Assembly (NCBI GenBank): GCA_035546615.1
Contig: DASZWM010000007.1
Coordinates: 1,451-65,450 of the forward strand
Reading direction: 5' to 3'
Length of the DNA: 64,000 bases
Source: Minisyncoccota bacterium
Lineage (GTDB): Bacteria; Patescibacteriota; Minisyncoccia; Phycocordibacterales; SBAW01
Each line of letters begins with the position of its first letter. Position 1 is the first letter of the stretch. Made by a program: the position numbers and the translations under genes. Below, piece after piece: positions 21,590 through 39,397 of this stretch. Under the pieces are notes generated by a model. It did not search any database. It was not told the DNA's origin and worked only from the letters and a program-made list of their open reading frames with translations.

Positions 21590-23869
21590 TTATTGTCCAG
21601 GTTTTAGAGTGCCGTTCTTTATATTCGTGATAAGCCCCTGCACCTGTCCCGCCGCCGCGGGATTGAGCCTGATGACCTCTTCGAGCTCGGCGATGGTCTC
21701 GGCGGTCTTCCCTGCGGTGAAGTACGCGGAGGCGAGCTGCACGTGCATATTGGCGTCGTTCGGATTCTTCGCGACCCGAGCCTGCCAGACGGCGACGATG
21801 CGGCCGTACTGCTTGGTGTCGGTATATATCTGGAGGAGCTGGTCGTTATCGACCGCCGTGGTGCCGTACGCCTGCATAAGCAGCGCATCGGCTGCGGCGT
21901 TCTGGCCGGCGTAGTACAGGGCGCCGGCGTAGGCGATGCGCGCCTGCTCGTAATCGGGCGATAGGTCGAAGGCTTTCTTGAAGGCGGCCAGGCCGTTGCT
22001 CAAATCGCCCTTCTGTATATAGGTCTGGCCCTCTTGGAAGAGGATCTGCTGCTTGCCCGGCGAGAGCTTCGCGGCCGTAGCCAAATGCTTAAGCGCATCG
22101 TCGTACTGGCCGTACTGGGTCAGGAACAGGCTGTCGAACAACTCAAGGCGCGCGTCATTCTTACGCTGAGCAAGCATCGCGTCTCCCGCGGCGCGCGTAT
22201 AGGCGTATACGGTTTGGGTCAGCTCCGGGCTCGCGCCGGAAGAAGCCTGCCGCAGGCCGTTTGCGAACTGGAAGAGCTGTTCCGTGGTTTCCTGCCGGCC
22301 GAGCTCGGCCCCGTCGTCGAGTGCCGCCTTGAAGGAGGCGAACCGCTTGTCCGGCGTGCGCGGCGCGCCCGTGGGCTCGTTCGTCTGCAGGCCGTCGATA
22401 ATGGTCTGCGCGCGCGCCATGCCGCCGGCGTTGAGCATCCACGCTCCGCCGAGCACCAGCACGGCCACAAGCGGCGCGACTATGGCGACCGTATGGTCAT
22501 TAACGGGCCTGAGCCAGAACATCCACCGCGGCAGCGCCTTCCACGAAAGCACGTGGAGGTACGCCAGCAGCAGGAAGAAGTACGCGATGCTCAAAAGGTT
22601 GTCGAACACGAACAGGTTGTTGAAGGCGTAGGCCGCCAGAAGGCCCAGCAATACGGCCTGCTCGGGGCTGGTAAGCTCAGCCGAGCGGAGTATCGCCCAC
22701 ACGCCAAGCCCGAACAGCGATATGTACAAAAGGAGCGCCGGAACGCCGCCGGCGACGAACCAGTCGAGAAATTCGTTGTGCGCGCGGTCGAACCACTGCT
22801 CCTGCGCCCACATGGCCGGATTGTAATGCTCGTTGAATATGTAGCTGAAGTTCTCCTGGCCCCAGCCGGTAACCGGCTTCTCGAGCGCGCCCTGCACGGC
22901 CATAGGCCATATATAGAAGAGGCGGGCCTTGGTCGTGCCGTCCTCAAGCGATATAGACGCGAGGCGTCCGAGGCCGGGAGAGTTGCGGACGAAGTCCGTA
23001 TCCTTCACCGCGATGAAGAGCGCCGCGCATATCGCGATGACGCCAAGCGCTCCCCATGACGCGCGGCGAAGCGTCCTGTACTGCTCTTCCCTGGCGCGCA
23101 GCGCCACGTATACGGCGGCCACGATAAGCCCGCCCACAAAGCCCAAAAGCGCGCCGCGGGTCTCGGTAAAGTAGAGCGCCGGCAACTCGAGCAGGAGCGC
23201 GATGCCGTAGAGCGTCAATGCGGTCGGCGACCTGCGGTCGCGCACCATCATATAGAGCGTCAGGAAGAGGTTGAGCAGCATGAACACGGCCAGGTACGTC
23301 GCGTTGCCGAAGCTGGTATCGGCGCGCACGCCGGACTGGGTCGAGGGCGACAGGCCGAACAGGTGGAACACCTGGAAAAGCGCGTAGATGCCTTGCGTTG
23401 CTGCTACCGCTATAGAGATGCGGAAGAACGCGTCCCACCAGCGCGACGCGTTGAATACTGCGCCGGCCACCACGAACAGCGCGAACAGGTGTATGACGGT
23501 AATGTAGCCGTCCATGCGCTCGAAGTTGCTCCAGAAGCTCTTTATCGGGTCGACGCTCAGCGCGGTCGCAAGAGCCATCCACAGCACGAACGCGCCGGCG
23601 GCCCACATAAGGTACGAGGCCTTGGGGCGGTATGCCGGCTCCTTTATCGCGAGTATGGCGTACAGCAGGACGATAAGCTCGACGAGCAGGCGGAACACGA
23701 AGTTCTTGCCCGTAATGTACGGGAAGTACATGGCCGGCACCCAGCCGCTGCCGGCGACGATAAAGGAGATGCACGGGACGGCGCACAGCCCGCCGATAAT
23801 AGCCCAGCGCAGATAGGTGGTATACGACATACGCGACACTATACCACAACACAGGCCGCCGATCCCCAA
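21590..23869 (-). CDS. Polytopic membrane protein with O-antigen-ligase-like (Wzy_C) domain and C-terminal TPR repeats. Candidate oligosaccharyltransferase/polymerase
   Basis: About 12 TM helices. Wzy_C signature region ETRGALLGF...WFDRAHNEFLDWFVAGG. The C-terminal ~250 aa are TPR-like (YAGALYYAGQNAAAD..MHVQLASAYFTAGKTAETIAELEEVIRLNP). Confidence 0.8.
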   Translation of the reverse strand: MGIGGLCCGIVSRMSYTTYLRWAIIGGLCAVPCISFIVAGSGWVPAMYFPYITGKNFVFRLLVELIVLLYAILAIKEPAYRPKASYLMWAAGAFVLWMALATALSVDPIKSFWSNFERMDGYITVIHLFALFVVAGAVFNASRWWDAFFRISIAVAATQGIYALFQVFHLFGLSPSTQSGVRADTSFGNATYLAVFMLLNLFLTLYMMVRDRRSPTALTLYGIALLLELPALYFTETRGALLGFVGGLIVAAVYVALRAREEQYRTLRRASWGALGVIAICAALFIAVKDTDFVRNSPGLGRLASISLEDGTTKARLFYIWPMAVQGALEKPVTGWGQENFSYIFNEHYNPAMWAQEQWFDRAHNEFLDWFVAGGVPALLLYISLFGLGVWAILRSAELTSPEQAVLLGLLAAYAFNNLFVFDNLLSIAYFFLLLAYLHVLSWKALPRWMFWLRPVNDHTVAIVAPLVAVLVLGGAWMLNAGGMARAQTIIDGLQTNEPTGAPRTPDKRFASFKAALDDGAELGRQETTEQLFQFANGLRQASSGASPELTQTVYAYTRAAGDAMLAQRKNDARLELFDSLFLTQYGQYDDALKHLATAAKLSPGKQQILFQEGQTYIQKGDLSNGLAAFKKAFDLSPDYEQARIAYAGALYYAGQNAAADALLMQAYGTTAVDNDQLLQIYTDTKQYGRIVAVWQARVAKNPNDANMHVQLASAYFTAGKTAETIAELEEVIRLNPAAAGQVQGLITNIKNGTLKPGQ

Positions 23870-24217: not shown

Positions 24218-25582
24218 TCACTGCCGCAGTTTAGCGGCCGCCGCCCGGCGGCCATGCGCCACGTACATCACGTGCTTCGGGAGCGCACGCGCGTCGAACA
24301 TTCCCCACGGGTCTATGACGACCGTGCGCTTCTTCGCCTTTGCAAGCAGCGCGGGAAGTTCGCTGAAAAGCGGATCGGGATTGGATACGAATATGACTGA
24401 GCTCTGGCGCGCCAAGTCAGCAAGCGTCGGCACATGCAGAACCGACGTGCCCAGCAGGGTTTGTGCTTCCGCGCTGCCTAAAGGCTCGAACACCGCGACG
24501 CGGTAGCGATTGCGCAGCATGCGCTCCACGAGCGCCAGCGCCTGCGAGGCTTCGCCGTGCGTGGTCTTGGGCTTGTAGGAAATGCCGAGGAATCCGACGA
24601 CGTCGCGCTTGCTCCCGGCATGCTCCTCCAAAAGCGCATACATGCTCTCTTCCATCGTTTGGTTGAGGATGTCGGTGGAGCGCGCCAGGTGCGCGGTGAA
24701 ACCGCGCCGCTTTGCCATCGCATAGAACGCGCGGTTGTCGCGCGGGAAGCAGGGGCCGCCGAAGCCGAGCCCAGCCTTCAGGAACTTGCGCCCGATGCGC
24801 GAGTCCTTCCCTATCGCATTGGTTATCTCGTCGACATCGGCGTTCGGGATGCGCGAGGCGATGGCGGCCAGGCCGTTGGCGAACGATATCTTCATCGTCA
24901 AGAACGAATTGAGCGCAATCTTGGCAAGCTCCGCGCTCTCCACGCTCATGCGCTCTATGGCCTGCGACCCCGGATACAGGGTCGTAAAGATCCCCTCCAC
25001 CGCGTCGCCCGCGCGCCCGTCGTGCGCGCCGAGGAACACGAAGTCGGGGCGCTCGAGGTTGTTAAGAATGTCGCCGATGGCGATGAGGCTCGGGCTGTAG
25101 ACGTAGCCGAAGTCGCGGCCGCAGACCTTGCCCGACGCGCGTTCGAATTCGGGTATGATGCGCTCGCGCGAGTCCCCCGGCAATACGGTGCTCACCAGCA
25201 CGAACGTGTGCCATCCCTTCTTGCGCCTGAGCGCCGGGCCCATCGTGCGCGCCGCGGCGGCCACGTAGTCGACCGAGAACAGCCCGCTCTTTTCGCTCGG
25301 CGTGGGCACGATGATAAACGTGATGTCGGTCTCGGCTATGAGCCGGTCCATGTCGGTTGTTGCCGAAAGGCGGCCCCTCGCCGCGGTTATGTAGTCCTGG
25401 AGGCCCGGCTCGGGCACGGGCGCCTTGCCCGCCTCGATGCTCGCGACCTTATGCTCATCAACGTCGAACCCGAGCACCTCGAATCCGGAGCGCGTAAGGA
25501 ACGCCGCATAGCACGCGCCGAGCTTCCCGAGCCCCACCACCGAAAGGCGCGGGAGTTTTTTCTTTGTGGTTTTTGTTTTCAT
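24218..25582 (-). CDS. Nucleotide-sugar dehydrogenase (UDP-glucose/GDP-mannose dehydrogenase family)
   Basis: Rossmann N-terminus LSVVGLGKLGACYA. Catalytic GFGGPCFPRD. Full-length three-domain protein (454 aa). Confidence 0.9.
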   Translation of the reverse strand: MKTKTTKKKLPRLSVVGLGKLGACYAAFLTRSGFEVLGFDVDEHKVASIEAGKAPVPEPGLQDYITAARGRLSATTDMDRLIAETDITFIIVPTPSEKSGLFSVDYVAAAARTMGPALRRKKGWHTFVLVSTVLPGDSRERIIPEFERASGKVCGRDFGYVYSPSLIAIGDILNNLERPDFVFLGAHDGRAGDAVEGIFTTLYPGSQAIERMSVESAELAKIALNSFLTMKISFANGLAAIASRIPNADVDEITNAIGKDSRIGRKFLKAGLGFGGPCFPRDNRAFYAMAKRRGFTAHLARSTDILNQTMEESMYALLEEHAGSKRDVVGFLGISYKPKTTHGEASQALALVERMLRNRYRVAVFEPLGSAEAQTLLGTSVLHVPTLADLARQSSVIFVSNPDPLFSELPALLAKAKKRTVVIDPWGMFDARALPKHVMYVAHGRRAAAAKLRQ

Positions 25583-25741: not shown

Positions 25742-26242
25742 ATGGAAAGGAAACGTTACGTGGGAAGACTGACCAATGAAGACTACGCACGGATATTCGA
25801 CCGGACGACGGGACTCGGCATTGTCCGCGCCGCATGGGACCTCCTCATTCTCGACGAGGACAAGCGGGTCGCGCTCGTGCAGCGGGACATCCCGCCGGAG
25901 CTGGGCACCTGGCATTTGCCGGGCGGCAAGATAAACGGCGGCGAAAGCTTCCAGGAGTTTGCTTCGCGGGTCGCGAAGCACGATCTCGGCATCGGCGTCG
26001 AGTTCGTTGACGCGGTAGGCGGCCTCAACTTCCCTGCAGAGGTATCGACGATGGAAGTAGAGGGCGAAGAGCGCGAGCTCACCATCCATACCGTCTCGAC
26101 TATCCTGCTGTGCAAGCCGCTGTCAGCCGGTTTGCGCGGCAGCGCCGAAGGCAAGAATGTCGGATGGTTCGCAACGGCGCCGAAGCCTGCGCACAGCGTC
26201 CATATTCCGTGGCTCCTGAAGCACGGCTACCTGCAGGCCTAA
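25742..26242 (+). CDS. NUDIX-family hydrolase (degenerate Nudix box)
   Basis: GGKINGGESFQEFASRVAKHDLGIGVE resembles Gx5Ex7REUxEExGU. Confidence 0.55.
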   Translation: MERKRYVGRLTNEDYARIFDRTTGLGIVRAAWDLLILDEDKRVALVQRDIPPELGTWHLPGGKINGGESFQEFASRVAKHDLGIGVEFVDAVGGLNFPAEVSTMEVEGEERELTIHTVSTILLCKPLSAGLRGSAEGKNVGWFATAPKPAHSVHIPWLLKHGYLQA

Positions 26243-26338: not shown

Positions 26339-26367
26339 TTGACATATAGTATCAAAAGTGCTATAAT
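26339..26367 (+). promoter_or_regulatory. Perfect consensus sigma70-type promoter TTGACA-N17-TATAAT
   Basis: TTGACA at 26339-26344, 17-nt spacer, TATAAT at 26362-26367. The track ORF start GTG at 26377 would make the mRNA essentially leaderless. An alternative start is GGAGG (26412-26416) plus 8 nt plus TTG at 26425. Confidence 0.55.
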
Positions 26368-26376
26368 AGAGAATAG

Positions 26377-27219: not shown

Positions 27220-27244
27220 CGGACACCGGCTAAGGCCGAAAAAG

Positions 27245-27280
27245 TAAAGGGCGGACCCGGTGGGTCCGCCCTTTTTATAT
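27245..27280 (+). terminator. Intrinsic terminator
   Basis: agggcggaccc-ggt-gggtccgccct followed by ttttatat. Confidence 0.6.
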
Positions 27281-27397: not shown

Positions 27398-28393
27398 ATG
27401 TACCAGAATCGGGAGATAAAAACGGCCCTTGTCCTGGGCGCCGGCGGCTTTATCGGCAGCCACCTGGTTCGCCGCCTCAAGAAAGAGGGCTTCTGGGTCC
27501 GCGGCGTCGACCTCAAATACCCTCAGTTCAGCATCCCCGAGGCCGACGAGTTCGTCCTGGGCGACCTGCGCGACCAGGCGGTGTGCCTCGGCGTGTTCGA
27601 CCGGCCGTTTGATGAGGTGTATCAGCTGGCAGCGGACATGGGCGGCGCCGGCTATATCTTTACCGGCGAGCATGATGCCGACGTCATGCACAATTCCGCG
27701 ACCATCAACCTCAACGCGGCGTACTACGGCCGCCAGGCGGGCGTGAAGAAGTTCTTCTACTCGTCCTCCGCATGCATGTACCCCGCCTACAACCAGGTGG
27801 ACCCGGACAACCCCAATTGCGCGGAAGACTCCGCGTATCCGGCAGCCCCCGACAGCGAGTACGGCTGGGAGAAGCTTTTCAGCGAGCGCCTGTACCTCGC
27901 CTTCAAGCGCAACTACGGCCTCAACGTGCGCATCGCCCGCTTCCACAATATCTTCGGCCCCGAAGGCACCTGGCAGGGCGGCAAGGAAAAGGCGCCGGCC
28001 GCGATATGCCGCAAGGTCGCTGAAGCGCCTCAGGGCAGCAGCATAGAGATATGGGGCGACGGCGAGCAGACCCGCTCCTTCCTATATATAGATGAGTGCC
28101 TCGAGGGCATGCGTCGCCTCATGGACTCCGAGTTCGAGGGCCCGGTCAACATCGGCTCCGACGAAATGGTAACCATCAACCAGCTGGCGCAGATGGCCAT
28201 GGATGCCGCCGGAAAACAGCTTTCCATAAAGCACATTGACGGTCCGCTCGGCGTGCGCGGCCGCAACTCGGACAACACGCTCATACGGCAAATGCTCGGC
28301 TGGGCACCGTCTGCACCGCTGCGTGAGGGTGTCGAGAAGACGTATCGCTGGATAGAACAGCAGCGCCTGCTCAATTCGATACGTCCCCGGTAA
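27398..28393 (+). CDS. gme: GDP-mannose 3,5-epimerase homologue (extended SDR), expected to form GDP-L-galactose/GDP-L-gulose
   Basis: Block-by-block match to plant GME: LAADMGGAGYI, KKFFYSSSACMYPAYNQ, RFHNIFGPEGTWQGGKEKAPAAICRK, IWGDGEQTRSFLYIDECLEG, PVNIGSDEMVTINQLAQ, GPLGVRGRNSDNTLIRQMLGWAP. Confidence 0.85.
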   Translation: MYQNREIKTALVLGAGGFIGSHLVRRLKKEGFWVRGVDLKYPQFSIPEADEFVLGDLRDQAVCLGVFDRPFDEVYQLAADMGGAGYIFTGEHDADVMHNSATINLNAAYYGRQAGVKKFFYSSSACMYPAYNQVDPDNPNCAEDSAYPAAPDSEYGWEKLFSERLYLAFKRNYGLNVRIARFHNIFGPEGTWQGGKEKAPAAICRKVAEAPQGSSIEIWGDGEQTRSFLYIDECLEGMRRLMDSEFEGPVNIGSDEMVTINQLAQMAMDAAGKQLSIKHIDGPLGVRGRNSDNTLIRQMLGWAPSAPLREGVEKTYRWIEQQRLLNSIRPR

Positions 28394-28416
28394 GCGCGGG
28401 CGGTATACTAAAGGGA

Positions 28417-29238
28417 ATGCAAACCACGACCATCATCCAGCCCCGCAAGAAGCTGGGGCTCGCCGACCTGGCAGAGCTCTGGCGCTACCGCGAGCTGCTT
28501 TTTTTCTTTTCCTGGCGCGACCTTAAGGTGCGCTACAAGCAGACCGCTATCGGGGTGGCGTGGGCGGTGTTCCAGCCGCTGGCTACTATGCTTATCTTTA
28601 CCCTGTTCTTCGGGACGCTCCTCAAGGTCCCGTCCGACGGCATTCCCTACCCGATCTTCGTCTATACCGGCCTTCTGTTCTGGCAATTCTTTTCCTCGTC
28701 GCTTGGCGACGTCAGCGGCAGTCTGGTGTCCAACCAGTCCATCATCACCAAGGTCTACTTTCCCCGCCTCATACTGCCGCTTGCGGTCGTGGCGACCAAC
28801 TTCATCGACTTCTGCGTCGCCTCGGGCGTCCTGGTCGCGCTGATGGTCTATTACGGGTTCCTGCCCAACCTCATGGGCCTCTTCATACTGCCCGTCTTGC
28901 TGCTTATGACCTACTTCGCGGCGCTCGGCGGCGGCCTATTCCTTTCCGCGCTCAACGTGAAATACCGCGACGTGCGCTATATCCTTCCCTACTTCATGCA
29001 GATGCTCCTCTTCATCACGCCGGTCATCTACCCGGCCAGCATCGCGGGAAAGTACTCCTGGCTACTCGCCATAAACCCGATGACCGGCATCATCAAGGCC
29101 GCGCGCGGCGCTTTGCTCGGCACGGAGCCGGTCAACTGGGCGCTTTTGGGAATTTCTTCGCTCGCCATCCTCGTGCTCTTTGCCGTGGGACTTGTCGTGT
29201 TCAAGAAGACCGAGCGTTACTTTGCCGATATCGTATAA
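28417..29238 (+). CDS. wzm: ABC-2 type polysaccharide/O-antigen export permease
   Basis: 273 aa, six TM helices. RDLKVRYKQTAIGVAWAVFQPLATMLIFTLFFG. Confidence 0.9.
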   Translation: MQTTTIIQPRKKLGLADLAELWRYRELLFFFSWRDLKVRYKQTAIGVAWAVFQPLATMLIFTLFFGTLLKVPSDGIPYPIFVYTGLLFWQFFSSSLGDVSGSLVSNQSIITKVYFPRLILPLAVVATNFIDFCVASGVLVALMVYYGFLPNLMGLFILPVLLLMTYFAALGGGLFLSALNVKYRDVRYILPYFMQMLLFITPVIYPASIAGKYSWLLAINPMTGIIKAARGALLGTEPVNWALLGISSLAILVLFAVGLVVFKKTERYFADIV

Positions 29239-29260
29239 ACAAAAAGTTGAAAGTCAATTA

Positions 29261-29681
29261 TGTCCATAAAGTCAAAAGTCTTTAATGCCTGTACAGTGAG
29301 AGAAGGGATATGACCATAGAACGATTCGAGGACATACTTGCATGGCAGAAAGCAAAAGAGTTGACGCTTTTGGTATATGCGGCATTCAAGGATAATAAGG
29401 ATTACGGCTTCAGGGACCAGATACAAAGGGCCTGCGTTTCAATAATGAATAATATCGCTGAAGGTTTTGAAAGAAAGGGCGATAAGGAATTCAAACAATT
29501 CTTATACATTGCCAAAGGGTCCTGCGGAGAAGTCAGATCTATGTTGGACATCGCCCTGGGCTTGGCGTATGTAGATCAAGAGCACTATACGCGCTACCGC
29601 GATCTATCCGTCGACACTTCTAAATTGCTGTCGGGATTCATCAAGACGCTTTAGACATTCAACATTCTGACTTTATGGACA
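29261..29681. repeat. IVS-like cassette: 14-bp perfect inverted repeats TGTCCATAAAGTCA (29261-29274) / TGACTTTATGGACA (29668-29681) flanking a four-helix-bundle gene inserted between wzm and wzt
   Basis: Exact reverse-complement arms. The right arm contains the wzt ATG (29675). The ORF inside belongs to the family typically found in 23S rRNA intervening sequences. Confidence 0.6.
29310..29654 (+). CDS. Four-helix-bundle protein of the 23S rRNA intervening-sequence protein family
   Basis: 114 aa. ERFEDILAWQKAKELTLLVY..IMNNIAEGFERKGDKEFKQFLYIAKGSCGEV. SD AAGGGA 4 nt upstream. Confidence 0.75.
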   Translation: MTIERFEDILAWQKAKELTLLVYAAFKDNKDYGFRDQIQRACVSIMNNIAEGFERKGDKEFKQFLYIAKGSCGEVRSMLDIALGLAYVDQEHYTRYRDLSVDTSKLLSGFIKTL

Positions 29682-30931
29682 ATTTACCCATCATCGAGAT
29701 ACAGGGCATCGGAAAGAAGTATGACATCAACCACCAGCGCGGCGGCTATATCGCCCTGCGCGATGTGCTTGCGTACATGCTCAAGCGGCCGTTCAGCTTC
29801 TTCAAGGCAAAGGCCAAGCGCGCCGTCGGGTTCGATAAAAAGGAGGAGTTCTGGGCCCTGCGCGACGTATCGTTCTCGGTCGGAAAAGGCGAGGTAGTGG
29901 GCGTCATCGGCCGCAACGGCGCGGGCAAGTCGACGCTTCTCAAGATCCTGACCGGCATCACGCCGCCCACCGAAGGCCGGGCCGTCATGCGCGGACGCGT
30001 GGCGTCGCTGCTTGAGGTCGGGACCGGCTTTCATCCGGAGCTGACCGGCCGCGAGAACATCTTCCTCAACGGAGCCATCATCGGCATGACGCGCCGCGAG
30101 ATAGCGCGCAAGTTCGACGATATCGTCGCGTTCTCCGGCATCGAAAAGTTTCTCGATACGCCGGTGAAGCATTACTCAAGCGGCATGTACGTGCGGCTCG
30201 CCTTTTCGGTGGCCGCGCATATGGAGCCGGACGTCCTTATCGTGGACGAAGTGCTCGCGGTCGGCGACGCGGAGTTCCAGAAAAAGTGCCTCGGCAAGAT
30301 GGAGGAGGTGACCCGCTCCGATGGCCGCACGATACTCTTCGTGAGCCACAACATGGCGGCGGTCGCGGCCCTATGCAAGAAGGTTGTCGTACTCGAGCAC
30401 GGTACGGTAGCTTTTTACGGGCCGACGCACGAGGCTATAGACTTTTATATGAATCGGTTTACATCCGCCGCCGGCGGCGCTCCTGCCAGCTTCTCGCTCG
30501 GACCCGTACGCTTGGACAATTTTACCCTCAACGGCGCTCCGGCGAACGCAATACCGCAGATTGCCTCCGGCGAGCCTCTTTCGATAGGTGTCCGCGTTGA
30601 GAGCACGGATCCCACTGGCAGGCTCAATATCGGCTATGGCATCCGCCGGCGCAGCGACGCATCGCTCATGGTGTTCTCGCACGCAGACCTCGAAAGTGCT
30701 AAATTACCTTCTGCCTCCGGCATCATAGAAGCCCGGTTCGATATGCCGCGGCTCGCGCCCGGCGACTACATCGTGGAATTCCAGGCCAAATACAATGACG
30801 CGGCGGGCATCCCGGAAAAAGAGATAGGCGGGTTCACGGTGCCTGAAACGCGGGCCTTCAAGGCCGAGCAGACGTTTAGGGACTTTCCCTCCGCCGTATT
30901 GGCCAACTCGAACTGGAACCATATTCGATAA
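29675..30931 (+). CDS. wzt: ABC transporter ATP-binding protein for polysaccharide export, with C-terminal carbohydrate-binding (Wzt_C-like) domain
   Basis: Walker A GRNGAGKSTLLK, signature LSGGMYVRLAF, Walker B LIVDEVLAVGD, plus ~170-aa C-terminal extension. Confidence 0.9.
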   Translation: MDNLPIIEIQGIGKKYDINHQRGGYIALRDVLAYMLKRPFSFFKAKAKRAVGFDKKEEFWALRDVSFSVGKGEVVGVIGRNGAGKSTLLKILTGITPPTEGRAVMRGRVASLLEVGTGFHPELTGRENIFLNGAIIGMTRREIARKFDDIVAFSGIEKFLDTPVKHYSSGMYVRLAFSVAAHMEPDVLIVDEVLAVGDAEFQKKCLGKMEEVTRSDGRTILFVSHNMAAVAALCKKVVVLEHGTVAFYGPTHEAIDFYMNRFTSAAGGAPASFSLGPVRLDNFTLNGAPANAIPQIASGEPLSIGVRVESTDPTGRLNIGYGIRRRSDASLMVFSHADLESAKLPSASGIIEARFDMPRLAPGDYIVEFQAKYNDAAGIPEKEIGGFTVPETRAFKAEQTFRDFPSAVLANSNWNHIR

Positions 30932-30990
30932 ACAATGATGAAGAAAAAACTTGTTACAGGTTCAGGTGTCATGCTGAGCCCACTAGAAAA

Positions 30991-33519
30991 ATGAAAAAGG
31001 CTCTTCTTTCTTTCTCGAAAAAGCATTTCGATCCTTCTGGTGAGGAGCAAGTCTTTTATGCTTCGAGCATGAGCATTATGATTGAGGGATTATACAATGC
31101 TCTCCGGAAAGCCGATTATGCGGTCGACTACATAGACTCCTGTGAAAATCCCAAGGGTCCGGGTCCCTATGATTTGTTTGTCGGTAATCTTACACGATGG
31201 ATGGATATCGCTTCGCAAAGCGAGGCGACTGTAAAGATCATCTTTATGGAAACCAGCCATCCGGTTAATCGCAACGAGCGCATGAAAGCATTGCGTGCAA
31301 GGTGGAACGTGCCACGAGACGAGGAATTGCTCGACACATCGTATACCGCACTACGCGCGTTCGAGCTTGCGGATTACGTTATACAGGTGGGCAACGGAGT
31401 CAATATGGACGCTCTTGTTGCTAATGGAGTGCCCCGGGACAAAATTATCCCTCTCCACTATGGTCTTCCGTTAGCATGGAACAAACACGACATTCTTGCG
31501 CGCGGCGCGCTGAATAGATATGTTCATACGGCTGCGGAAATGGGATTACGCAAGGGGCTTCAGGAACTGATAGGGGCGTTCGGCTCCCCTACGTTCAAGA
31601 ATATGTATCTGACTCTTATCGGGAACGTACGCAAAAAGGAGAACTACGCTTTTTGGAACTCTCGACTGGAGACTCTTAAGAAGGAAAATCCTGGTGTTGT
31701 GCACCTAGGATTTATCGACGCATCGTCGAGAAGATACTCCGAAATTTTGGCCGAACACGCATGGTATCTGTTCCCGTCGGCAGAAGAAGGCGAACCGGGA
31801 ACCGTACTGGAAGCGATGACTCTTGGTTTAGTGCCAATCCTGACGCGAGATAGTGGGATAGATTTCGCGCTCGATGGGAACTTTGAGGCTACGTTCAAGG
31901 AATCTCTTGATAAAACGCTTGCCATATCGAAAGAACAGTGGAGCATTCTCTCAGAAAAGGCCCGGCACTATATAATATTATTCCACGATCACGCCCTTTT
32001 TGAGAATCGGCTGGCCGAATTGTTCGGCAAGATAGCCGGTGGCGCGCGCGATTTGCGTCCTACCGCGAGCATTATACTGACTGTCCACGACAAAGAAAAA
32101 CATATCGTACGGCTGCTACAGACCCTTCTTACGAATACTCGCTCCTATCCTCACTGGGACCTACATATTATCTATGATGGCTGCAGCGACGCGTCGCGGC
32201 AAGTAGCGCAGGAAACCCTGAAGGACTTCCCTGTTACGGTATACGAGTATGAAACGCCTGACGTATGGGAAGTAAAAGCAAACAATTACGGTCTCAAGCG
32301 GGCGCAAGGTAAATATTGCGTCATTCTACAGGACGACAACTTCATATATGAAGAAGGGTGGCTCGAAAAGATGCTCTCTTGGCTCGAGGAGCACCCGAAG
32401 GTCGGCATATTAGGAGGCTTGGCAGGCGTAAACTTCTTCCATCTCGACTCCTCCGATCCGAAGGGCCCGGGGGTGAACCGCTCCGCATTCGAGCTTCACC
32501 AGCGACTCGACCCAGCAGTACAGATTGAACTGCGGGATTTCATCTTCGAAGTTGACGCGGTCATGCGCGGGCCAATCATCCTTCGGAAAGCTCTGCTTGA
32601 GAAGCACGGTTACTTCGACGAAACGTACGCCCCGCTCTACAACGACGACATGGACTACTGCTTCCGAATGCGGAGCCTTGGCTATGGGGTATTCTGCTAC
32701 CCCATCAATGTGGTGAACGAGAGCCTTACGGTGGCACAGTATAAGAACCCGGTAAAGGACAAATTCTGGAAAGATACGGCGGAAAAGAACCAGAAACTAT
32801 TATATAGGCGCTGGAGCGGAGATATAGAGAAATATCATGCGATCCAGATAAAAGTACCGAAACCCACCCTTGCAGCAGTCGGGGCTTTCCGGAAACAGCA
32901 TACGGCGCGTCTGCCCAGGCTCAACATGTATGATATTCGCGTGCGGTCCCGCGCCGCAGCCCGCGCGATGTTCCTGCGCCTGCCCGCTTCTTTGGTGCGC
33001 GGCCTGATTCAAACGCTAAGATACGCGGGAGGTCGCGGAATCGCGGAGAAGCTCCGCGTGCACTATTTCGAGGGTAAGACTATTCCGTGGCGGCTCGCAA
33101 ACGGCGATGCGAACCTGCGGGTCGAGTACCCACTCGCTTCCTCCTCGCTCATATACAGCATCGGCGAGAAAAACGCGCAATGGGCGGAAGTTATGCGGCG
33201 CCGGTACGGATGTATGGTGCGTACACTTGCCTCCTGGCCTGCCGTGACGGATGTGGGAAAAGACCTCGAAGCGCGCATACGAGGGCAGGGGGATATAGAT
33301 CTGCTGAGTCTCTACATGGATGGTGGAGAATACGAGCTCCTGGAAATGCTGCTTGATAGCGGCACGGTGCAGAGTATTAGGAATATCCAGATAAAATTCG
33401 ACGACAGCGCCCCCGACGCCATATCGCGCGTGCGTGCTATCCGCAAGCGGCTACGCGAGACGCACGCACCGACCTACCAATATGATTTCGTGTGGGAGAA
33501 TTGGGAAAGAAAGAAGTAA
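30991..33519 (+). CDS. Tri-domain glycan-biosynthesis enzyme: N-terminal GT4-like, central GT2 (DxD), C-terminal domain with weak FkbM-methyltransferase-like similarity
   Basis: 842 aa. GT2 block SIILTVHDKEKHIVRLLQTLL..DLHIIYDGCSDASRQ..YCVILQDDNFIYEEGW. C-terminus DIDLLSLYMDGGEYELLEML. Confidence 0.75.
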   Translation: MKKALLSFSKKHFDPSGEEQVFYASSMSIMIEGLYNALRKADYAVDYIDSCENPKGPGPYDLFVGNLTRWMDIASQSEATVKIIFMETSHPVNRNERMKALRARWNVPRDEELLDTSYTALRAFELADYVIQVGNGVNMDALVANGVPRDKIIPLHYGLPLAWNKHDILARGALNRYVHTAAEMGLRKGLQELIGAFGSPTFKNMYLTLIGNVRKKENYAFWNSRLETLKKENPGVVHLGFIDASSRRYSEILAEHAWYLFPSAEEGEPGTVLEAMTLGLVPILTRDSGIDFALDGNFEATFKESLDKTLAISKEQWSILSEKARHYIILFHDHALFENRLAELFGKIAGGARDLRPTASIILTVHDKEKHIVRLLQTLLTNTRSYPHWDLHIIYDGCSDASRQVAQETLKDFPVTVYEYETPDVWEVKANNYGLKRAQGKYCVILQDDNFIYEEGWLEKMLSWLEEHPKVGILGGLAGVNFFHLDSSDPKGPGVNRSAFELHQRLDPAVQIELRDFIFEVDAVMRGPIILRKALLEKHGYFDETYAPLYNDDMDYCFRMRSLGYGVFCYPINVVNESLTVAQYKNPVKDKFWKDTAEKNQKLLYRRWSGDIEKYHAIQIKVPKPTLAAVGAFRKQHTARLPRLNMYDIRVRSRAAARAMFLRLPASLVRGLIQTLRYAGGRGIAEKLRVHYFEGKTIPWRLANGDANLRVEYPLASSSLIYSIGEKNAQWAEVMRRRYGCMVRTLASWPAVTDVGKDLEARIRGQGDIDLLSLYMDGGEYELLEMLLDSGTVQSIRNIQIKFDDSAPDAISRVRAIRKRLRETHAPTYQYDFVWENWERKK

Positions 33520-33541
33520 TGCAATACAGAATTATCCTGGT

Positions 33542-35050
33542 ATGCGCAAATATCTATCTCCAAAAACATATCTACGCTTTATACGATACAAAATTCGCAA
33601 ACTGAAAAAGGAACCCCTGCCTTCCTCGTCACGGCCCGTGTTCTGGATAGGTATCGGCGCTTGCGGTTTCTTGCGCACCTACAACTTGCTCACGTACAGC
33701 GGACAAACATCGGTATATTTTAAAAGCCGCAATAAACTTCAGAACCATAACGTGCATCTGCATCCCGAGCGGGAACTCATGTGGGAGCGCGGCGAGGACG
33801 AGGGCGAACGGGTGCGCGCGTATTTCAAGCACGAAGGCGTATACGACCACCACATAGCGCCCTACACCATCCGGTACGCCGAAGAAATACTCGCACACTT
33901 CAGCGGCGAGGCCGTGTTCCTCTGCCTTCGCTCGCGGAAGTCCGTCCGCTCGCTCTGGCTGCAGTGGGGATACCGCAACCCGCTCATGGCCGACCGCGCG
34001 CGCAAGAACCGCTATCCGGTCGAGTTCTATCCGGACTTGTCCGGTACCGCCAAAGACGGCAGGGAGGCGGTCGAGCGGTACAATGCTATTTATGACGAGC
34101 TTGCGGACTCGCTCGCAGCGGCTCACCCCGATACTTTTTACGTCGTAGATGCGGACCGGTTCTTTAGCGATGAGGAATATTTCAACTCGATCAACGGGCG
34201 GTTCGGCTTGAGGCTGGCGTTCAAAGCCCAGGCGCCGGATTGCGATAGCGGCGGCGTAACGACAACGCTCGACGGAGGGCTGGGCAACAACCTGTTCCAA
34301 ATGGCGGAGCCGGTTGCCTTCTGCGCCGAGCACGGCCTCCCCGCCCCGCAATTTTCAACATGGCAGATGCCGGACTTTCCGCCCTCCTACCGCAGTGATC
34401 GTTTTTTGGGCGGGCATACGGGGTCGCAGGAAGAACTGAAGCGCACCTTCCCGGGAGTTGCATGGCTTCCGCCTTCCATAGCCTCTTTCGACCATAAATT
34501 CATGGTAACGGATATGTTCTCCTTCGAGGATGCGCATCCGCAGCGCGAAGCCATACTCAAGCATCTCGGCCCCTCTGAAGAGATGAGGCAGGAACTCGCG
34601 CAAAAGTATCCCGCTCTGGTCAAAGAAAATACGGTTTCCCTCCACTACCGGACCGGAGGCCTCAAGGCGGATACGCGCTCTTTCAGCGGGCTGAGTACCG
34701 AGTGGTATAAAAAGGTATTCGCTGACTATTTCCCGAAAGGGTACGACTGTTTCGTGTTCTCCGACAATAACGAGGCCGCCAAGAAGCTTATTGCGGAACT
34801 GGCAGGCAACAGCGAGAATACGTACCACCTTATAGAAGAAGGCGTCTTTCCGTCGCTCATTATGATGAGCATGTGCAGGAACCACATACTCAGCAACTCA
34901 ACGCTCAGCTTTTGGGGAGCATATCTCGACCCCCGCCAGCCTGCCGGTAAGACCATCCTCCATCCCAGCTTTGAGACCTACCATTCCGAGCCCCATATCG
35001 AGTGCCGCATGATTCCGTATCCGGAATGGATACGGTACGATACGGCGTAA
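33542..35050 (+). CDS. Two-domain protein: N-terminal domain of unknown function plus C-terminal GT11-family (alpha-1,2-fucosyltransferase-like) glycosyltransferase
   Basis: GT11 motifs LDGGLGNNLFQMAEPVAF and HILSNSTLSFWGAYL. Start placed at ATG 33542 (MRKYLSPKTY) because the 5' part of the track ORF overlaps the previous gene. Confidence 0.75.
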   Translation: MRKYLSPKTYLRFIRYKIRKLKKEPLPSSSRPVFWIGIGACGFLRTYNLLTYSGQTSVYFKSRNKLQNHNVHLHPERELMWERGEDEGERVRAYFKHEGVYDHHIAPYTIRYAEEILAHFSGEAVFLCLRSRKSVRSLWLQWGYRNPLMADRARKNRYPVEFYPDLSGTAKDGREAVERYNAIYDELADSLAAAHPDTFYVVDADRFFSDEEYFNSINGRFGLRLAFKAQAPDCDSGGVTTTLDGGLGNNLFQMAEPVAFCAEHGLPAPQFSTWQMPDFPPSYRSDRFLGGHTGSQEELKRTFPGVAWLPPSIASFDHKFMVTDMFSFEDAHPQREAILKHLGPSEEMRQELAQKYPALVKENTVSLHYRTGGLKADTRSFSGLSTEWYKKVFADYFPKGYDCFVFSDNNEAAKKLIAELAGNSENTYHLIEEGVFPSLIMMSMCRNHILSNSTLSFWGAYLDPRQPAGKTILHPSFETYHSEPHIECRMIPYPEWIRYDTA

Positions 35051-35053
35051 GCT

Positions 35054-35773
35054 ATGGAGCGCTTCAAAAAATATTTGGTTCCGAGAAACTACCTGCACCG
35101 CCTGCGGCTTATACTGGGGATGGATTACAAGGCAAGCTATGCGCAAAATGGCGAGGACCTGCTTATAGACTTTATCTTCCGCGCTCTCAAGATAGACTGC
35201 CCTTCATATATTGATATCGGCGCACACGATCCCCTACATAAGAGCAATACTGTTCGCCTGTATAAACAAGGGTCCAGGGGCATCAACATCGAGGCAAATC
35301 CCGTCTTGTATAAGTGCTTCCCGCGCAAACGCCCAGGAGACATTAATCTCAATATCGGCATTGCTCCTCATGCCGGCACGCTGGATTTTTACGTCATGAA
35401 CAATCCCGGATTAAGCACCTTTTCAAAAGAAGAGGCCGAACGCCTGGTCCGGGACCATGGGTTTGCGATCGCCAGCGTGTATCCGGTCCGGGTGCGGACG
35501 GTTGCGGACGTGATAGAGGAATATTGCGGCGGCACGTGCCTGGACCTGCTCACTATAGACACGGAAGGGCTGGACGAGGATATTCTGCGATCCGTCGATT
35601 TCTCCAAATATCGGCCCAAGGTCATATGCGTTGAAACGATATCCTTTTCCAAAACGCGCGGCGGCGTTAAGGACGAAAGACTTATAAGCTTCCTGAAAGA
35701 ACAGGGATACCTGCTGTTGGCGGATACGTATATAAATTCCCTTTTCGTCGATGCAAGCGTATGGAAAGAATAG
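35054..35773 (+). CDS. FkbM-family methyltransferase
   Basis: YIDIGAHDPLHKSNTVRLYKQG..LLTIDTEGLDEDILRS. Confidence 0.8.
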   Translation: MERFKKYLVPRNYLHRLRLILGMDYKASYAQNGEDLLIDFIFRALKIDCPSYIDIGAHDPLHKSNTVRLYKQGSRGINIEANPVLYKCFPRKRPGDINLNIGIAPHAGTLDFYVMNNPGLSTFSKEEAERLVRDHGFAIASVYPVRVRTVADVIEEYCGGTCLDLLTIDTEGLDEDILRSVDFSKYRPKVICVETISFSKTRGGVKDERLISFLKEQGYLLLADTYINSLFVDASVWKE

Positions 35774-36759
35774 ACGCGCGCTACGAAGCTCAGGTATATC
35801 GCGGGCCGCGCATCGCGGGGCTTTTGCACGCCATGCTCGGGAATGCGCCATTCGCATGGTACCGCCGCGCGCGCAACGCGGCGATCGCCCCGTTCCTTAG
35901 GAAGCCGGCCCTTGCCACGGCCGTGTACAAGAACGGCCTGCGCTTCTGGGACGCCCGCTCCTACCGAAAGGCCCTGGCCTACTATCTCGCCAAACGCCAG
36001 ACGTTTGAGGAATACAGCGAGGACCGGTCGAATGAGCCGAAGGAATATCTCGATCTCGATTTCTGCGCGTACTTCCAATGCTACAAGAACAGACGCGCCA
36101 CCCGCGAAGCGCTGCGTTCGTTCCGGCGGCAGTACCCTGCAGTACCCGTGCTGCTCCTCTCCGACGGCGGCGACGACTTCAGCGAACTGGCGCGCGAATT
36201 CGGCTGCGAATACGAGCACGACCCTAAAAATATCGGTTACTGGCCGTGCAAGGACATGCTGCTATGGTTCAAGCGGCTTGCGCTCGCCTGCGAGCGGTTC
36301 GGCAAAGAGTGGGTGCTTATTCTTGAGGACGACGTGCGTACGCGCGACAGGATAAGCAAGTACCCGCACGCGCACCTTTCCGGCCAAGGCGGCAGCCGGG
36401 GCGCGCGGATAACGAAACAGCTGTCGCCTGCGGCGGTGGCGTATATACAAGAGAAATATCCGGATGCCGGAGCATTCGGCATCTCGGGCTGCGGCGGCTC
36501 CATATTCCATCGCGCGTCTTTTATGGACTGCTACGCAAAGCTGACGCCGGAGGATCTTGCGCGATGGTCCATGCTCGATCCCGGCTCTGAAGGAGCCACT
36601 GATATCGCGCTTACATTCCTGTTCCTCGCGAACGGATACACGGTGCGCCGCTGGCTGGACTTAAGCCACGACAGTATCGGCAATTGGGGGCCGGGCAGCG
36701 CGTTCGATCATCAGTTCAAGGAGTTTTACGGGCCAAAATCGGAGGGATCGCCGGTATGA
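35761..36759 (+). CDS. Hypothetical protein, possible GT-A-fold glycosyltransferase
   Basis: VPVLLLSDGGDDFSEL and WVLILEDDVRT are DxD-like. Low-confidence assignment. Confidence 0.5.
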   Translation: MERIDARYEAQVYRGPRIAGLLHAMLGNAPFAWYRRARNAAIAPFLRKPALATAVYKNGLRFWDARSYRKALAYYLAKRQTFEEYSEDRSNEPKEYLDLDFCAYFQCYKNRRATREALRSFRRQYPAVPVLLLSDGGDDFSELAREFGCEYEHDPKNIGYWPCKDMLLWFKRLALACERFGKEWVLILEDDVRTRDRISKYPHAHLSGQGGSRGARITKQLSPAAVAYIQEKYPDAGAFGISGCGGSIFHRASFMDCYAKLTPEDLARWSMLDPGSEGATDIALTFLFLANGYTVRRWLDLSHDSIGNWGPGSAFDHQFKEFYGPKSEGSPV

Positions 36760-37658
36760 TCATCGTCAAGATACACGGCGGCCTCGGCAATCAGCTGTTC
36801 CAATACGCGCTTGGAAAGGCGGTGGCGGATCGCAACAATATGCCGCTCATGCTCGACATCTCGGGCTACGGCCGCGTGGCCGACCGCTCCTACGGACTCT
36901 CCCCATTTTCCGTTTCCGCCGCAATCGCGTCGCCCGGTGATATTGCCACCCTCCTGCCGCCCGCGGATGGGAGCTTTCTCTCCCGCGTACGCAGAAAAGC
37001 ATTCTACGGGGTGCAGCAGCTCCTGCCGATTGAGAAGCGGGCATACGTGCGAGAGCCGCATTTCCATTTTGCGCCGGAGATATTGCGCGCCGGCAAGAAT
37101 GCCTATCTGGACGGCTATTGGCAGTCGCAAAAGTACTTCGCGGACATCGGGCCCGAGATCCGCAAACAGTTCGCTCTGGCTGCGCCGTTTGGCCCCGCCG
37201 CGGCAGCCATCGCTAGCGATATCGCAAAAGACGCACGGCTGGGCCGCGCCGTGTCGGTGCATGTGCGGCGCGGCGATTACGTGACGAATCCCAACGTAAC
37301 CGCAATGAACGGCGTGTGTCCGCCGGAATATTACCGCGCTGCGGCGCACGCCATGGCGAACCGCCTGGGGCAGCCGCCCGTATATTACGTATTTTCCGAC
37401 GACATCGAGTGGGTGCGCGAGCATATGCCCTTTCTCTCGCCGGCCGTGTTCGTATCCCGCCCCGGCATAGCTCCGCACGAGGACATTGCGCTCATGAGCC
37501 GCTGCTCGGCGCATATCCTTGCCAACAGCACCTTCAGCTGGTGGGGCGCGTGGCTTGATCCGAATCCTGCTAAGATAGTCATTGCGCCCAAAGAATGGTT
37601 CCGGGACCGGAGCGTCAATACCAAGGACGTGCTGCCGCCTGAGTGGATACAGCTATAG
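36756..37658 (+). CDS. GT11-family glycosyltransferase (alpha-1,2-fucosyltransferase-like), copy A
   Basis: MIIVKIHGGLGNQLFQYALGKAVA ... ILANSTFSWWGAWL. ATGA overlap with the upstream gene. Confidence 0.85.
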   Translation: MIIVKIHGGLGNQLFQYALGKAVADRNNMPLMLDISGYGRVADRSYGLSPFSVSAAIASPGDIATLLPPADGSFLSRVRRKAFYGVQQLLPIEKRAYVREPHFHFAPEILRAGKNAYLDGYWQSQKYFADIGPEIRKQFALAAPFGPAAAAIASDIAKDARLGRAVSVHVRRGDYVTNPNVTAMNGVCPPEYYRAAAHAMANRLGQPPVYYVFSDDIEWVREHMPFLSPAVFVSRPGIAPHEDIALMSRCSAHILANSTFSWWGAWLDPNPAKIVIAPKEWFRDRSVNTKDVLPPEWIQL

Positions 37659-37669: not shown

Positions 37670-38569
37670 ATGATAATCATCAAATTACAGCACGGCCTCG
37701 GCAATCAGCTGTTCCAGTATGCGCTCGGCAAAAAGCTCGCGCTTCTGCACGGCACCGAACTGAAGCTCGACATATCGACCTACACGCAGCGCATCGGCTA
37801 TCGCCATTTCGGGCTCGAGCCTTTTGCGATTACCGCGCCCGTCGCGGCACCGGAGGACTTCAGGCGCATACGCGTGCCCCCTCCTACCCAGGACCTGCTG
37901 TCGCGCATCAGGCGCAAGGCGCTGCGCATGCGGGAGCAGGGCACACCACTCAATGAGAGGCGTTTTATTACGGAACCCCGGCCGACATTCATCCCCGAAG
38001 TGCTTCAGGCGCGCGATAATGCATACCTCGTAGGCGATTGGCAGAGCGAAAAGTACTTCAAGGACATCGCGCCCGTCATACGCCGCGAATTCGCGCTTAA
38101 AGAGCCCTTGCAGGGCGCCGCTCTGCGCGTGGCCGAGCAGATCAGGCAATCGCACGGCACGCCGGTGTCGCTTCATGTGCGGCGCGGTGACAGCGTGAGC
38201 AACCCGAAGTCCATACAGAAGTTCGGCACGATGCCGCTCTCCTATTATCTTGAGGCGGCGCGGATGATGCGGCAGAAGGTGCCCGACGCCGTGTTTTTCG
38301 TATTCTCGGACGACATTCTCTGGGCGCACGAACATCTGGCAGAGCTTGCCCCCATAGTGTTCGCGTCAGATCCCGAGATAAAGGATTACGAGGACCTGAC
38401 GCTCATGAGCCTATGCGCCCACCATATCCTTCCCAACAGCACGTTCAGCTGGTGGAGCGCCTGGCTCAATCCCAGCCCTCATAAGCTGGTTATCGCTCCC
38501 AAGAAGTATTTCCAAGACCCGTCCATGGACACCAGCGACCTTATGCCGCCTGAGTGGATACGGCTGTAA
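37670..38569 (+). CDS. GT11-family glycosyltransferase (alpha-1,2-fucosyltransferase-like), copy B (tandem paralogue)
   Basis: MIIIKLQHGLGNQLFQYALGKKLA ... ILPNSTFSWWSAWL. Shared C-terminal ...LMPPEWIRL/LPPEWIQL. Confidence 0.85.
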   Translation: MIIIKLQHGLGNQLFQYALGKKLALLHGTELKLDISTYTQRIGYRHFGLEPFAITAPVAAPEDFRRIRVPPPTQDLLSRIRRKALRMREQGTPLNERRFITEPRPTFIPEVLQARDNAYLVGDWQSEKYFKDIAPVIRREFALKEPLQGAALRVAEQIRQSHGTPVSLHVRRGDSVSNPKSIQKFGTMPLSYYLEAARMMRQKVPDAVFFVFSDDILWAHEHLAELAPIVFASDPEIKDYEDLTLMSLCAHHILPNSTFSWWSAWLNPSPHKLVIAPKKYFQDPSMDTSDLMPPEWIRL

Positions 38570-38599: not shown

Positions 38600-39397
38600 A
38601 TGCAATCATCATTTGCCCAAGTCCCCGTCGATGCCGTCCGCGATTTCTGGAACCGCCGTCCGTGCAACATCCGCCACTCCCCCAGCCCCGTCGGTACAAA
38701 AGCCTATTTTGACGAGGTGGAGGCACGCAAATACAAAGTCGAGCCGCACATTCCCGGTTTTGCGGACTTTCCGCGCTGGAAGGGGAAAAAAGTGCTCGAA
38801 ATAGGGGGCGGCATCGGGACCGACTCCGTCAATTTCGCGCGAGCCGGAGCGAAGCTTACCGTGACCGAGCTGTCGGAGGAAAGCCTCAAGATATGCCAGG
38901 AGCGCTTCAAGGTATTCGGCCTGCAGGCATCGTTCTATACCGGCGACGCGGAGCGCCTTTCGGACATTGTCCCGGTCGAGAAGTACGACCTCGTATACTC
39001 CTTCGGCGTCATTCATCACTCGCCGCATCCGGAGCGCATCATCGAGGAAATAAAGAAGTACATGGGTCCGGACTCGGAGCTGCGCATCATGCTCTACGCC
39101 AAATACTCCACCAAGAACCTGCTTATTCTCCTAGGCCTGATGCAGCCGGAGGCCCAGACGGGGTGCCCAATCGCCTACACCTACAGCGGCCGCGACGTGC
39201 GCAAGCTTCTGAAGGGCTTCGACGTCGTCTCCATCAAGAAAGACCATATATTCTCCTACCAGATAGAGCCGTACAAGCGCTACGAGTACAAGAAGTCGTT
39301 CCCCTGGAACCTCACTCCTGAGCCGATATTCCACATGTTCGAGCGGCTCTTCGGCTGGCACCTTCTCATCACCGCGAAGCTGCCGAAGCATGGCTAA
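38600..39397 (+). CDS. Class I SAM-dependent methyltransferase
   Basis: [32 protein letters not shown] ... [12 protein letters not shown]. Confidence 0.75.

Follow-up and report, generated by a model that had tools for sequence, protein, structure and literature searches.

A 64-kb stretch of DNA (contig DASZWM010000007.1; hereafter the window) from a member of the Patescibacteria raises the question of what a GDP-mannose 3,5-epimerase (abbreviated GME) is used for in these bacteria, and whether the GT11 glycosyltransferases encoded downstream of it transfer L-galactose rather than L-fucose. Enzymes of the GT11 family are inverting and use GDP-beta-L-fucose, and L-fucose is 6-deoxy-L-galactose. 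A preliminary description of the window, made from the sequence alone, likened the product of the open reading frame (ORF) at 27398-28393 on the plus strand to plant GME, and proposed that the three GT11 enzymes may be L-galactosyltransferases. We find that the epimerase is very probably genuine and that GME and GT11 genes are truly coupled in a minority of genomes, with no specialised L-galactosyltransferase lineage. In this locus the GT11 donor may be GDP-L-fucose or GDP-L-galactose, and transfer of L-galactose is a plausible idea.

The epimerase and its relatives

The ORF encodes a 331-residue protein of the extended short-chain dehydrogenase/reductase (SDR) type, and a sequence search of the PDB returns the GME of Arabidopsis thaliana (AtGME) as the top match (entries 2c59, 2c54, 2c5a and 2c5e; E=1e-97, 330 bits, aligned residues 9-322), with a further GME, 8sg0, at 3e-95. 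The runner-up family is UDP-glucuronate decarboxylase (8e-28, 101 bits), and GalE-type and Fcl entries score at most 93 bits, such that the margin of GME over any other SDR family is 230 bits. In a four-way alignment the protein is 50.6% identical to AtGME over 308 columns and keeps the Ser/Tyr/Lys triad (S124, Y155 and K159, corresponding to AtGME S143, Y174 and K178), the Cys/Lys acid-base pair (C126 and K198; C145 and K217 in AtGME) and the conserved arginine (R289; R306 in AtGME), together with an NAD-binding GxxGxxG motif at G14-G17-G20. The block-by-block likeness to plant GME noted in the preliminary description is thus borne out, with all six catalytic and substrate residues kept. Nor does the protein cluster with the UDP-sugar 4-epimerases, the outcome named there as telling against the assignment, the GalE-type scores being far below the 330 bits for GME. 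We are confident that the product of 27398-28393 is a true GME, as predicted from these residues and scores.

The public annotation is generic. NCBI labels the protein 'NAD-dependent epimerase/dehydratase family protein' because NCBIfam has no model for GME; no NCBIfam model is passed, the best being Fcl, which gives 101 bits where 500 are required. JGI applies the name GDP-D-mannose 3',5'-epimerase to many homologues that share 77-81% identity with the window epimerase. The epimerase and one of the GT11 proteins (GT11b) have 100%-identical database entries on a contig of 65,450 nt, nearly all of which the window covers; NCBI labels its source as a Candidatus Paceibacterota (Patescibacteria) metagenome-assembled genome (MAG; locus tags VHD55_*).

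Bacterial GMEs are already established, and the window epimerase adds another member. The first to be characterised, MfGM35E of Methylacidiphilum fumariolicum, shares 50.5% identity with the plant enzyme, and its major product is GDP-L-galactose, with GDP-L-gulose made besides; other bacterial GMEs have been implicated in the biosynthesis of bleomycin and of A201A, and involvement in lipopolysaccharide (LPS) has been hypothesised (PMC6678494). The window GME shares with AtGME (2C59) and MfGM35E the extended SDR fold, the GxxGxxG motif, the Ser/Tyr/Lys triad, the Cys/Lys pair and the arginine. It is about 50% identical to AtGME, as MfGM35E is, and both bacterial genes have neighbours that encode glycosyltransferases and methyltransferases. 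It lacks the N- and C-terminal extensions of the plant protein (331 residues versus 379 in the crystallised 2c59 chain), and it differs from both enzymes in its Patescibacteria MAG origin, in its place at the head of a Wzm/Wzt operon, and in that its activity is predicted.

The preliminary description also held this enzyme family to be uncommon in bacteria, which is overstated. A scan of species-representative genomes gave at least 599 pattern matches, and relatives of the window GME are encoded in at least 578 of these species genomes. The best 80 loci, which were kept for comparison, encode proteins 72-81% identical to it and come from Patescibacteria, Bacteroidota, Alphaproteobacteria, Gammaproteobacteria, Planctomycetota, Acidobacteria and other phyla; the best 120 database matches listed are 76-100% identical, all but the closest four being in the range of 76-82%. 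Identity of 72-81% across phyla is unusually high conservation, which points to strong constraint or frequent horizontal transfer. GME is also present in 37 T4-like cyanophage records, 60-68% identical to the window GME and within glycan-modification cassettes. Examples among records H1-H15 are NC_015287.1 (200671-201726) and MK867354.2 (110305-111294), and most phage GMEs are annotated simply as 'nucleotide-sugar epimerase' or 'UDP-glucose 4-epimerase'.

The GT11 genes and their coupling to GME

The three GT11 domains of the preliminary description are real, with the qualification that the gene at 33542-35050 (GT11a) is GT11 in its C-terminal 270 residues only. GT11b and GT11c (Table 1) span the whole PF01531 profile with 124 and 101 bits, respectively, contain the donor motif HxRRxD, and are paralogues of 50% identity. 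GT11a matches PF01531 over residues 439-532 only (4.6e-7, 29.8 bits), and a custom GT11 hidden Markov model (HMM) over residues 269-538 of its long ORF (214.6 bits for the ORF and 213.4 for the domain). Its motif HYRTGG, which retains just the first arginine of HxRRxD, stands where that motif is expected, and GT11a may therefore be catalytically atypical, or may be a chain terminator or scaffold. The long ORFs of GT11a, GT11b and GT11c have alternative starts at 33434, 36684 and 37643, but the starts at 33542, 36756 and 37670 fit the gene lengths (506, 275 and 299 aa) in a syntenic locus, L162, of a second Paceibacterota MAG (GCA_035546075.1), in which GME is 90% identical. The HYRTGG motif is the same in L162. 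The N-terminal ~230 residues of GT11a (33542-34237) have no Pfam match and are 75% conserved in L162. A solved GT11 structure was sought for inspection of the C6 pocket, and a sequence search of the PDB found none.

Of the best 80 GME loci, all from other species, 14 have a GT11 gene within 10 kb, and nine of the 15 GT11 genes share the strand of GME and start downstream of it at a distance of no more than 1 kb (binomial P~2e-10, computed against uniform GT11 placement over the available flanks). Either gmd or fcl, which represent the two-enzyme fucose pathway, is present within 10 kb in three of these 14 loci, and the other 11 have neither. Counting the families that occur within three genes of GME in the best 80 loci gives 18 for other SDRs, 16 for GT4, 14 for GT2, and 11 each for GT11 and NDP-sugar dehydrogenases. 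GT11 is a small family by CAZy proportions, and its count near GME is therefore a clear enrichment.

The earlier statement that no gmd or fcl is visible in the window holds. Searches by tblastn with E. coli K-12 Gmd, Fcl, ManC, ManB and Gmm (query proteins taken from L001) found no gmd, fcl, manC or manB in the 64 kb, returning weak SDR cross-matches only, and Pfam and NCBIfam scans of all called window genes likewise recovered no gmd or fcl. The 16 kb of L162 contain neither gene. A second SDR gene in the window (SDR2) was considered as a hidden Fcl and rejected: it has alanine at the catalytic cysteine position of Fcl and GME, and 25.7% identity to Fcl by tblastn. It also has histidine at the position of GME Lys217 and matches GME and GalE structures equally weakly, and by these residues we regard it as neither GME nor Fcl.

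Fucosyltransferases accept GDP-L-galactose, according to a passage of PMC8787198 that cites Stangier 1997, Duffels 2000 and Ohashi 2017/2019. Coupling to GME without a lineage of its own fits such promiscuity, with GT11 transferring whichever GDP-beta-L-hexose the cell makes. Given donor promiscuity and no specialised lineage, the question reduces to whether the genome has gmd and fcl elsewhere.

L-galactose or L-fucose?

The proposal that the GT11 proteins are L-galactosyltransferases is thus upheld in part. The recurrent, tight order of GME followed by GT11, their presence in one array in the window, the lack of gmd and fcl there and the donor promiscuity of fucosyltransferases all speak for it; the lack of a separate clade or diagnostic residue, and the finding that none of the eight closest GT11b relatives on long contigs lies near GME, do not.

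The best-surviving alternative is that the GT11s are ordinary alpha-1,2-L-fucosyltransferases fed by gmd and fcl, or by salvage, from elsewhere in the genome, and that some other glycosyltransferase of the island (GT2, GT4 or unannotated) uses GDP-L-galactose or GDP-L-gulose. We rate this clearly below an even chance, and the following observations all favour it at the expense of L-galactose transfer by GT11. First, 66 of the best 80 GME loci have no GT11 within 10 kb, and other glycosyltransferase families must therefore use GDP-L-galactose there; GT2 and GT4 fucosyltransferases do exist, WcaE and WcaI of E. coli colanic-acid synthesis, both annotated as fucosyltransferases, being of GT2 and GT4 types. 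Second, in the reverse comparison, 80 metagenome loci were collected around GT11 relatives (identity of 32-47% over the best aligned segment); GME is present in two, and gmd and/or fcl in seven. When only loci of 8 kb or more are counted, 32 in all, the corresponding numbers are one and six. The eight closest relatives of GT11b on long contigs (36-47% identical), picked regardless of GME, include none with GME within 10 kb, two with gmd and fcl (L165 and L167) and six with neither. Over all 88 GT11-anchored loci, gmd or fcl is nearby in nine and GME in only two.

Third, a dedicated L-galactosyltransferase clade was looked for and rejected, as 93 GT11 domains gave a star-like neighbor-joining tree in which those linked to GME and those linked to gmd/fcl are intermixed; for example, L111, which lies near a weaker GME-like match (362 bits), is sister to the Gmd-linked L092. 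No alignment column separates the 15 GME-linked from the seven gmd/fcl-linked GT11 sequences. Fourth, three GME loci and a cyanophage carry gmd and/or fcl alongside both GME and GT11, and in these the GT11 could simply be the fucosyltransferase. Finally, the absence of gmd and fcl from 64 kb is weak evidence, both because gmd and fcl are missing from the 10 kb around some 80% of the sampled GT11 genes and because the GDP-mannose genes that are certainly needed here are off-window as well. With manC and manB also missing from the window, nucleotide-sugar genes are clearly located elsewhere, and gmd and fcl may be too; some Patescibacteria do carry them (L006, L010 and L048). What this alternative does not account for is the tight placement of GT11 downstream of GME in nine loci, the 11 of 14 GME-GT11 loci that have no gmd or fcl within 10 kb, and the lack of both genes in the window and in L162.

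A second alternative is that the epimerase yields mainly GDP-L-gulose, acting at C5 only as BlmG might, or feeds a non-glycan route, and that the polymer contains no L-galactose. GDP-L-gulose is a by-product of GMEs, and BlmG, which is 42% identical to AtGME, is the proposed maker of NDP-L-gulose for bleomycin (PMC6678494). However, the window GME keeps both the cysteine and the lysine needed for double epimerisation, is as close to AtGME as is MfGM35E with its major product of GDP-L-galactose, and heads a glycan operon. No candidate for a downstream pathway of the ascorbate type emerged when the window genes were scanned with Pfam, and we consider this alternative improbable. The least credible, that the ORF encodes a generic extended SDR (a UDP-sugar 4-epimerase or dehydratase) merely resembling GME, can draw on the generic NCBI label and the unpassed NCBIfam models, but is very hard to reconcile with 330 bits to solved GMEs versus 101 or fewer to every other SDR, with the GME-specific Cys/Lys pair and arginine, and with the names that JGI gives to close homologues.

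Organization of the glycan island

GME is the first of 12 co-directional genes that occupy 13 kb (27398-40310) with intergenic gaps of -13 to +71 nt, and this array sits within a glycan island of ~30 kb (Table 1). A strong hairpin terminator with a 13-bp stem followed by a T run (27246-27274) lies directly upstream of GME. The ABC-2 permease and its ATPase (PF01061 and PF00005) are encoded inside the glycosyltransferase cluster; their Wzm/Wzt-type NCBIfam matches are below the equivalog cut-offs, and the Wzt_C domain of the ATPase scores 29.6 bits against a cut-off of 30.4 and is weak in L162 as well. The predicted layout corresponds to a polysaccharide pathway that depends on an ABC transporter, the methyltransferases being candidates for capping. 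No protein with PF00953 or PF02397, the families of initiating polyprenyl-phosphate glycosyl-phosphate transferases, was found in the family scans of the window, and by analogy with E. coli wecA such an enzyme may be encoded elsewhere.

Table 1. Predicted genes of the glycan island, with gene order in the co-directional array
Feature	Array order	Coordinates	Strand	Evidence and remarks
Wzy_C membrane protein (O-antigen ligase/O-oligosaccharyltransferase family) with C-terminal TPR		21590..23869	-	PF04932 5e-22, TPR
Nucleotide-sugar 6-dehydrogenase (UDP-glucose dehydrogenase-like)		24218..25582	-	TIGR03026 296 bits, above cut-off; Pfam; divergent from array
NUDIX hydrolase		25742..26242	+	PF00293 1e-8; weak likeness to GDP-mannose mannosyl hydrolase (Gmm)
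GME, GDP-mannose 3,5-epimerase	1	27398..28393	+	PDB 2c59 match, AtGME alignment, Pfam Epimerase 1e-42; opens the array
Wzm, ABC-2 permease, polysaccharide exporter	2	28417..29238	+	PF01061 7e-17; NCBIfam galactan export permease Wzm/RfbD 3e-20, below cut-off
Four-helix-bundle protein, 23S-rRNA-intervening-sequence type	3	29310..29654	+	PF05635 1e-32; between wzm and wzt
Wzt, exporter ATPase	4	29675..30931	+	PF00005 4e-22; possible C-terminal carbohydrate-binding domain
Two-domain glycosyltransferase (GT4-GT2), 842 aa	5	30991..33519	+	Glycos_transf_1 at 180-290 (GT4-type), then Glycos_transf_2 at 360-479 (GT2)
GT11a	6	33542..35050	+	N-terminal part without family (~230 aa); C-terminal GT11 domain (34238-35050); degenerate donor motif HYRTGG
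FkbM-family methyltransferase	7	35054..35773	+	PF05050 4e-22
GT6-like GT-A-fold protein	8	35761..36759	+	Fold match only
GT11b	9	36756..37658	+	Full-length GT11, motif HVRRGDY; PF01531 9e-36; NCBI name alpha-1,2-fucosyltransferase
GT11c	10	37670..38569	+	Full-length GT11, motif HVRRGDS; PF01531 8e-29
SAM-dependent methyltransferase	11	38600..39397	+	Methyltransf_25/23/12/11, ~1e-13
GT15 (Kre2/Mnt1-type alpha-1,2-mannosyltransferase) homologue	12	39390..40310	+	PF01793 2e-26; PDB Ktr4/Kre2 2.5e-19 to 2e-15
Methyltransferase		40324-41187	-	
GT4		41656-42816	-	
GT4		42823-43890	-	
FkbM methyltransferase		43883-44644	-	
GT4		44670-45734	-	
GT4		45796-46713	-	
GT4		46710-47723	-	
SDR2		47725-48759	-	
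NDP-sugar dehydrogenase-like		49425-50441	-	
GT4		50476-51588	+	

The synteny with L162 extends from the Wzy_C-TPR gene through GT11c to the next methyltransferase gene, where L162 ends before any GT15 position. The gene for the PF05635 protein is absent from L162, in which wzm and wzt abut. A convergent minus-strand array (40324-50441) follows the GME array and encodes five GT4 proteins, two methyltransferases, SDR2 and a dehydrogenase-like protein; an ORF on the plus strand at 44064-45737 was rejected as spurious, the real genes there being on the minus strand. The GT15 homologue at the end of the GME array is of the fungal Ktr4/Kre2 type and is found here in a Patescibacteria genome; to our knowledge GT15 is an essentially fungal family.

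The NUDIX hydrolase is a possible regulator of the GDP-sugar pool, judging from its weak likeness to Gmm (E=5e-4 by tblastn from the E. coli protein; 22 bits for the NCBIfam Gmm subfamily, short of the cut-off). A NUDIX protein adjoining GME in L057 (9396-9842) bridges the two, with 77 bits to the window NUDIX and 43 bits to Gmm, and a NUDIX gene is kept just upstream of GME in L162 (4463-4945). The Wzy_C-TPR architecture is encoded within three genes of GME in six other loci (e.g. L011, 5426-7654) and also in L162. In a host presumed to have no outer membrane, its acceptor may be a protein, a pilin or a wall polymer.

Several further features surround the array. Between the NUDIX gene and GME is an ORF of 280 aa (26377-27219) without a family match. 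A sigma-70 promoter of its own with perfect consensus, TTGACA-17-TATAAT with TG (26339-26367), precedes it, and the terminator at 27246-27274 follows. The whole ~1-kb plus-strand cassette (26339-27274) is absent from the syntenic L162. In the central transferase genes (30000-36000) the G+C content drops to 0.53-0.55 and GC3 to ~0.6, compared with 0.59-0.64 and above 0.8, respectively, in the flanking housekeeping genes; such a dip would fit the horizontal acquisition of some of the glycan island. At the edge of the window, a minus-strand ORF of more than 3,058 aa (3-9179) runs off the end and contains LVIVD repeats (PF08309, 1e-49), and it probably encodes a giant surface protein.

A GT6-like protein beside GT11

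The gene at 35761-36759 encodes a member of a family of 28 among 5.8e9 proteins. It has no Pfam or NCBIfam match and no sequence-level match to GT6, but for its AF2 model (pLDDT 88.6) the top Foldseek matches listed from the PDB, 50 in number, are all GT6 structures (alpha3GalT, GTA/GTB and BoGT6a, a solved bacterial GT6), with E ~1e-7 and TM scores of only 0.45-0.57. Two acidic residues, E189 and D191, sought as a DxD-type motif, are invariant in the family. A GT6-like gene lies directly upstream of a GT11 gene in three loci: the window, L162 (13207-14001) and the unrelated L163 (8898-9971). GT6 enzymes are retaining alpha-1,3-Gal/GalNAc transferases that act on the Fuc-alpha-1,2-Gal product of GT11, and because they use GT11 products as acceptors, the modelled GT6-like protein and its GT11 partner may build a blood-group-like branch.

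Comparison with known systems

The O8 and O9a antigens of E. coli are methyl-capped polymannans, built by the GT4 mannosyltransferases WbdA, WbdB and WbdC, terminated by WbdD, and exported by Wzm and a Wzt with a C-terminal carbohydrate-binding domain. The window resembles these systems in its Wzm and Wzt with a weak Wzt_C domain, its multidomain and GT4 transferases, its possible capping methyltransferases and its GDP-mannose-derived donors. It is unlike them in having GME, three GT11 proteins, GT15 and a GT6-like protein, and in having no manB, manC or initiating phosphoglycosyl transferase in the window. Because the host is presumed to be a monoderm bacterium of the Candidate Phyla Radiation (CPR), the acceptor would not be lipid A-core as it is in O8/O9a.

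Pairs of GT11 and GT6 enzymes build blood-group-like epitopes, as in E. coli O86. GT11b and GT11c resemble bacterial GT11 alpha-1,2-fucosyltransferases in their full PF01531 domain and HxRRxD motif, and a GT6-like gene lies directly upstream of one of them; the window departs from GT11-GT6 systems in having GME instead of gmd and fcl, in the degenerate GT11a with its extra N-terminal domain, and in a GT6 likeness by fold only. A third comparison is with Synechococcus phage S-SCSM1, in which a cassette is annotated with gmd, fcl, GME and, three genes downstream, an alpha-1,2-fucosyltransferase (PMC9602691). The phage cassette, like the window, clusters GME (63% identical) with GT11, other glycosyltransferases and methyltransferases, but it carries gmd and fcl and has no Wzm/Wzt. 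Because it carries these two genes besides GME, S-SCSM1 should be able to make both GDP-L-fucose and GDP-L-galactose.

Discussion

The explanation that we prefer, with somewhat better than even confidence, is that GME feeds a GT11-built, ABC-exported glycan. GDP-D-mannose made by off-window genes would be converted by GME to GDP-beta-L-galactose and some GDP-L-gulose, and it is probable that the GME product enters this glycan. The cytoplasmic GT4-GT2 fusion, GT11a, GT11b, GT11c, the GT6-like protein, GT15 and the GT4s of the convergent array would together build a lipid-linked, mannose-rich, O-methylated glycan, the methyltransferases capping or decorating it. The most likely route for the L-sugar is that one or more GT11s transfer L-galactose as alpha-L-Gal, and that a GT11 is the L-galactosyltransferase we put at slightly under an even chance. 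Wzm and Wzt would then export the glycan, which the Wzy_C-TPR protein may ligate to a carrier.

More tentatively, in Patescibacteria and other bacteria that have GT11 directly downstream of GME and are devoid of gmd and fcl, the GT11s could be native alpha-1,2-L-galactosyltransferases, with GME replacing the two-enzyme fucose pathway. In the window they would produce, together with the GT6-like protein, an O-methylated, blood-group-like epitope with L-galactose in place of L-fucose, a suggestion that we rank as less likely than not. No description of a natural bacterial L-galactosyltransferase was found in the searchable literature, and searches on L-galactose O-antigens and on Patescibacteria fucosyltransferases found nothing relevant. 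GT11s as natural L-galactosyltransferases are an unproven but testable idea, not found in the literature searched.

As to what bacterial GMEs are for, the paper characterising MfGM35E went no further than conjecture, naming LPS and antibiotics (PMC6678494). The present locus, with the repeated order of GME followed by GT11, leads to a testable hypothesis, namely that GT11s add L-galactose to surface glycans exported by an ABC transporter. Should it prove false, the locus would be a large but otherwise ordinary polysaccharide island. If true, it would widen the donor range of a family that is uniformly annotated as alpha-1,2-fucosyltransferase, and would offer natural L-galactosyltransferases for glycoengineering. 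It would also reveal a one-enzyme shortcut to an L-hexose in the Patescibacteria, bacteria with reduced genomes that probably attach to host cells by means of their surface glycans.

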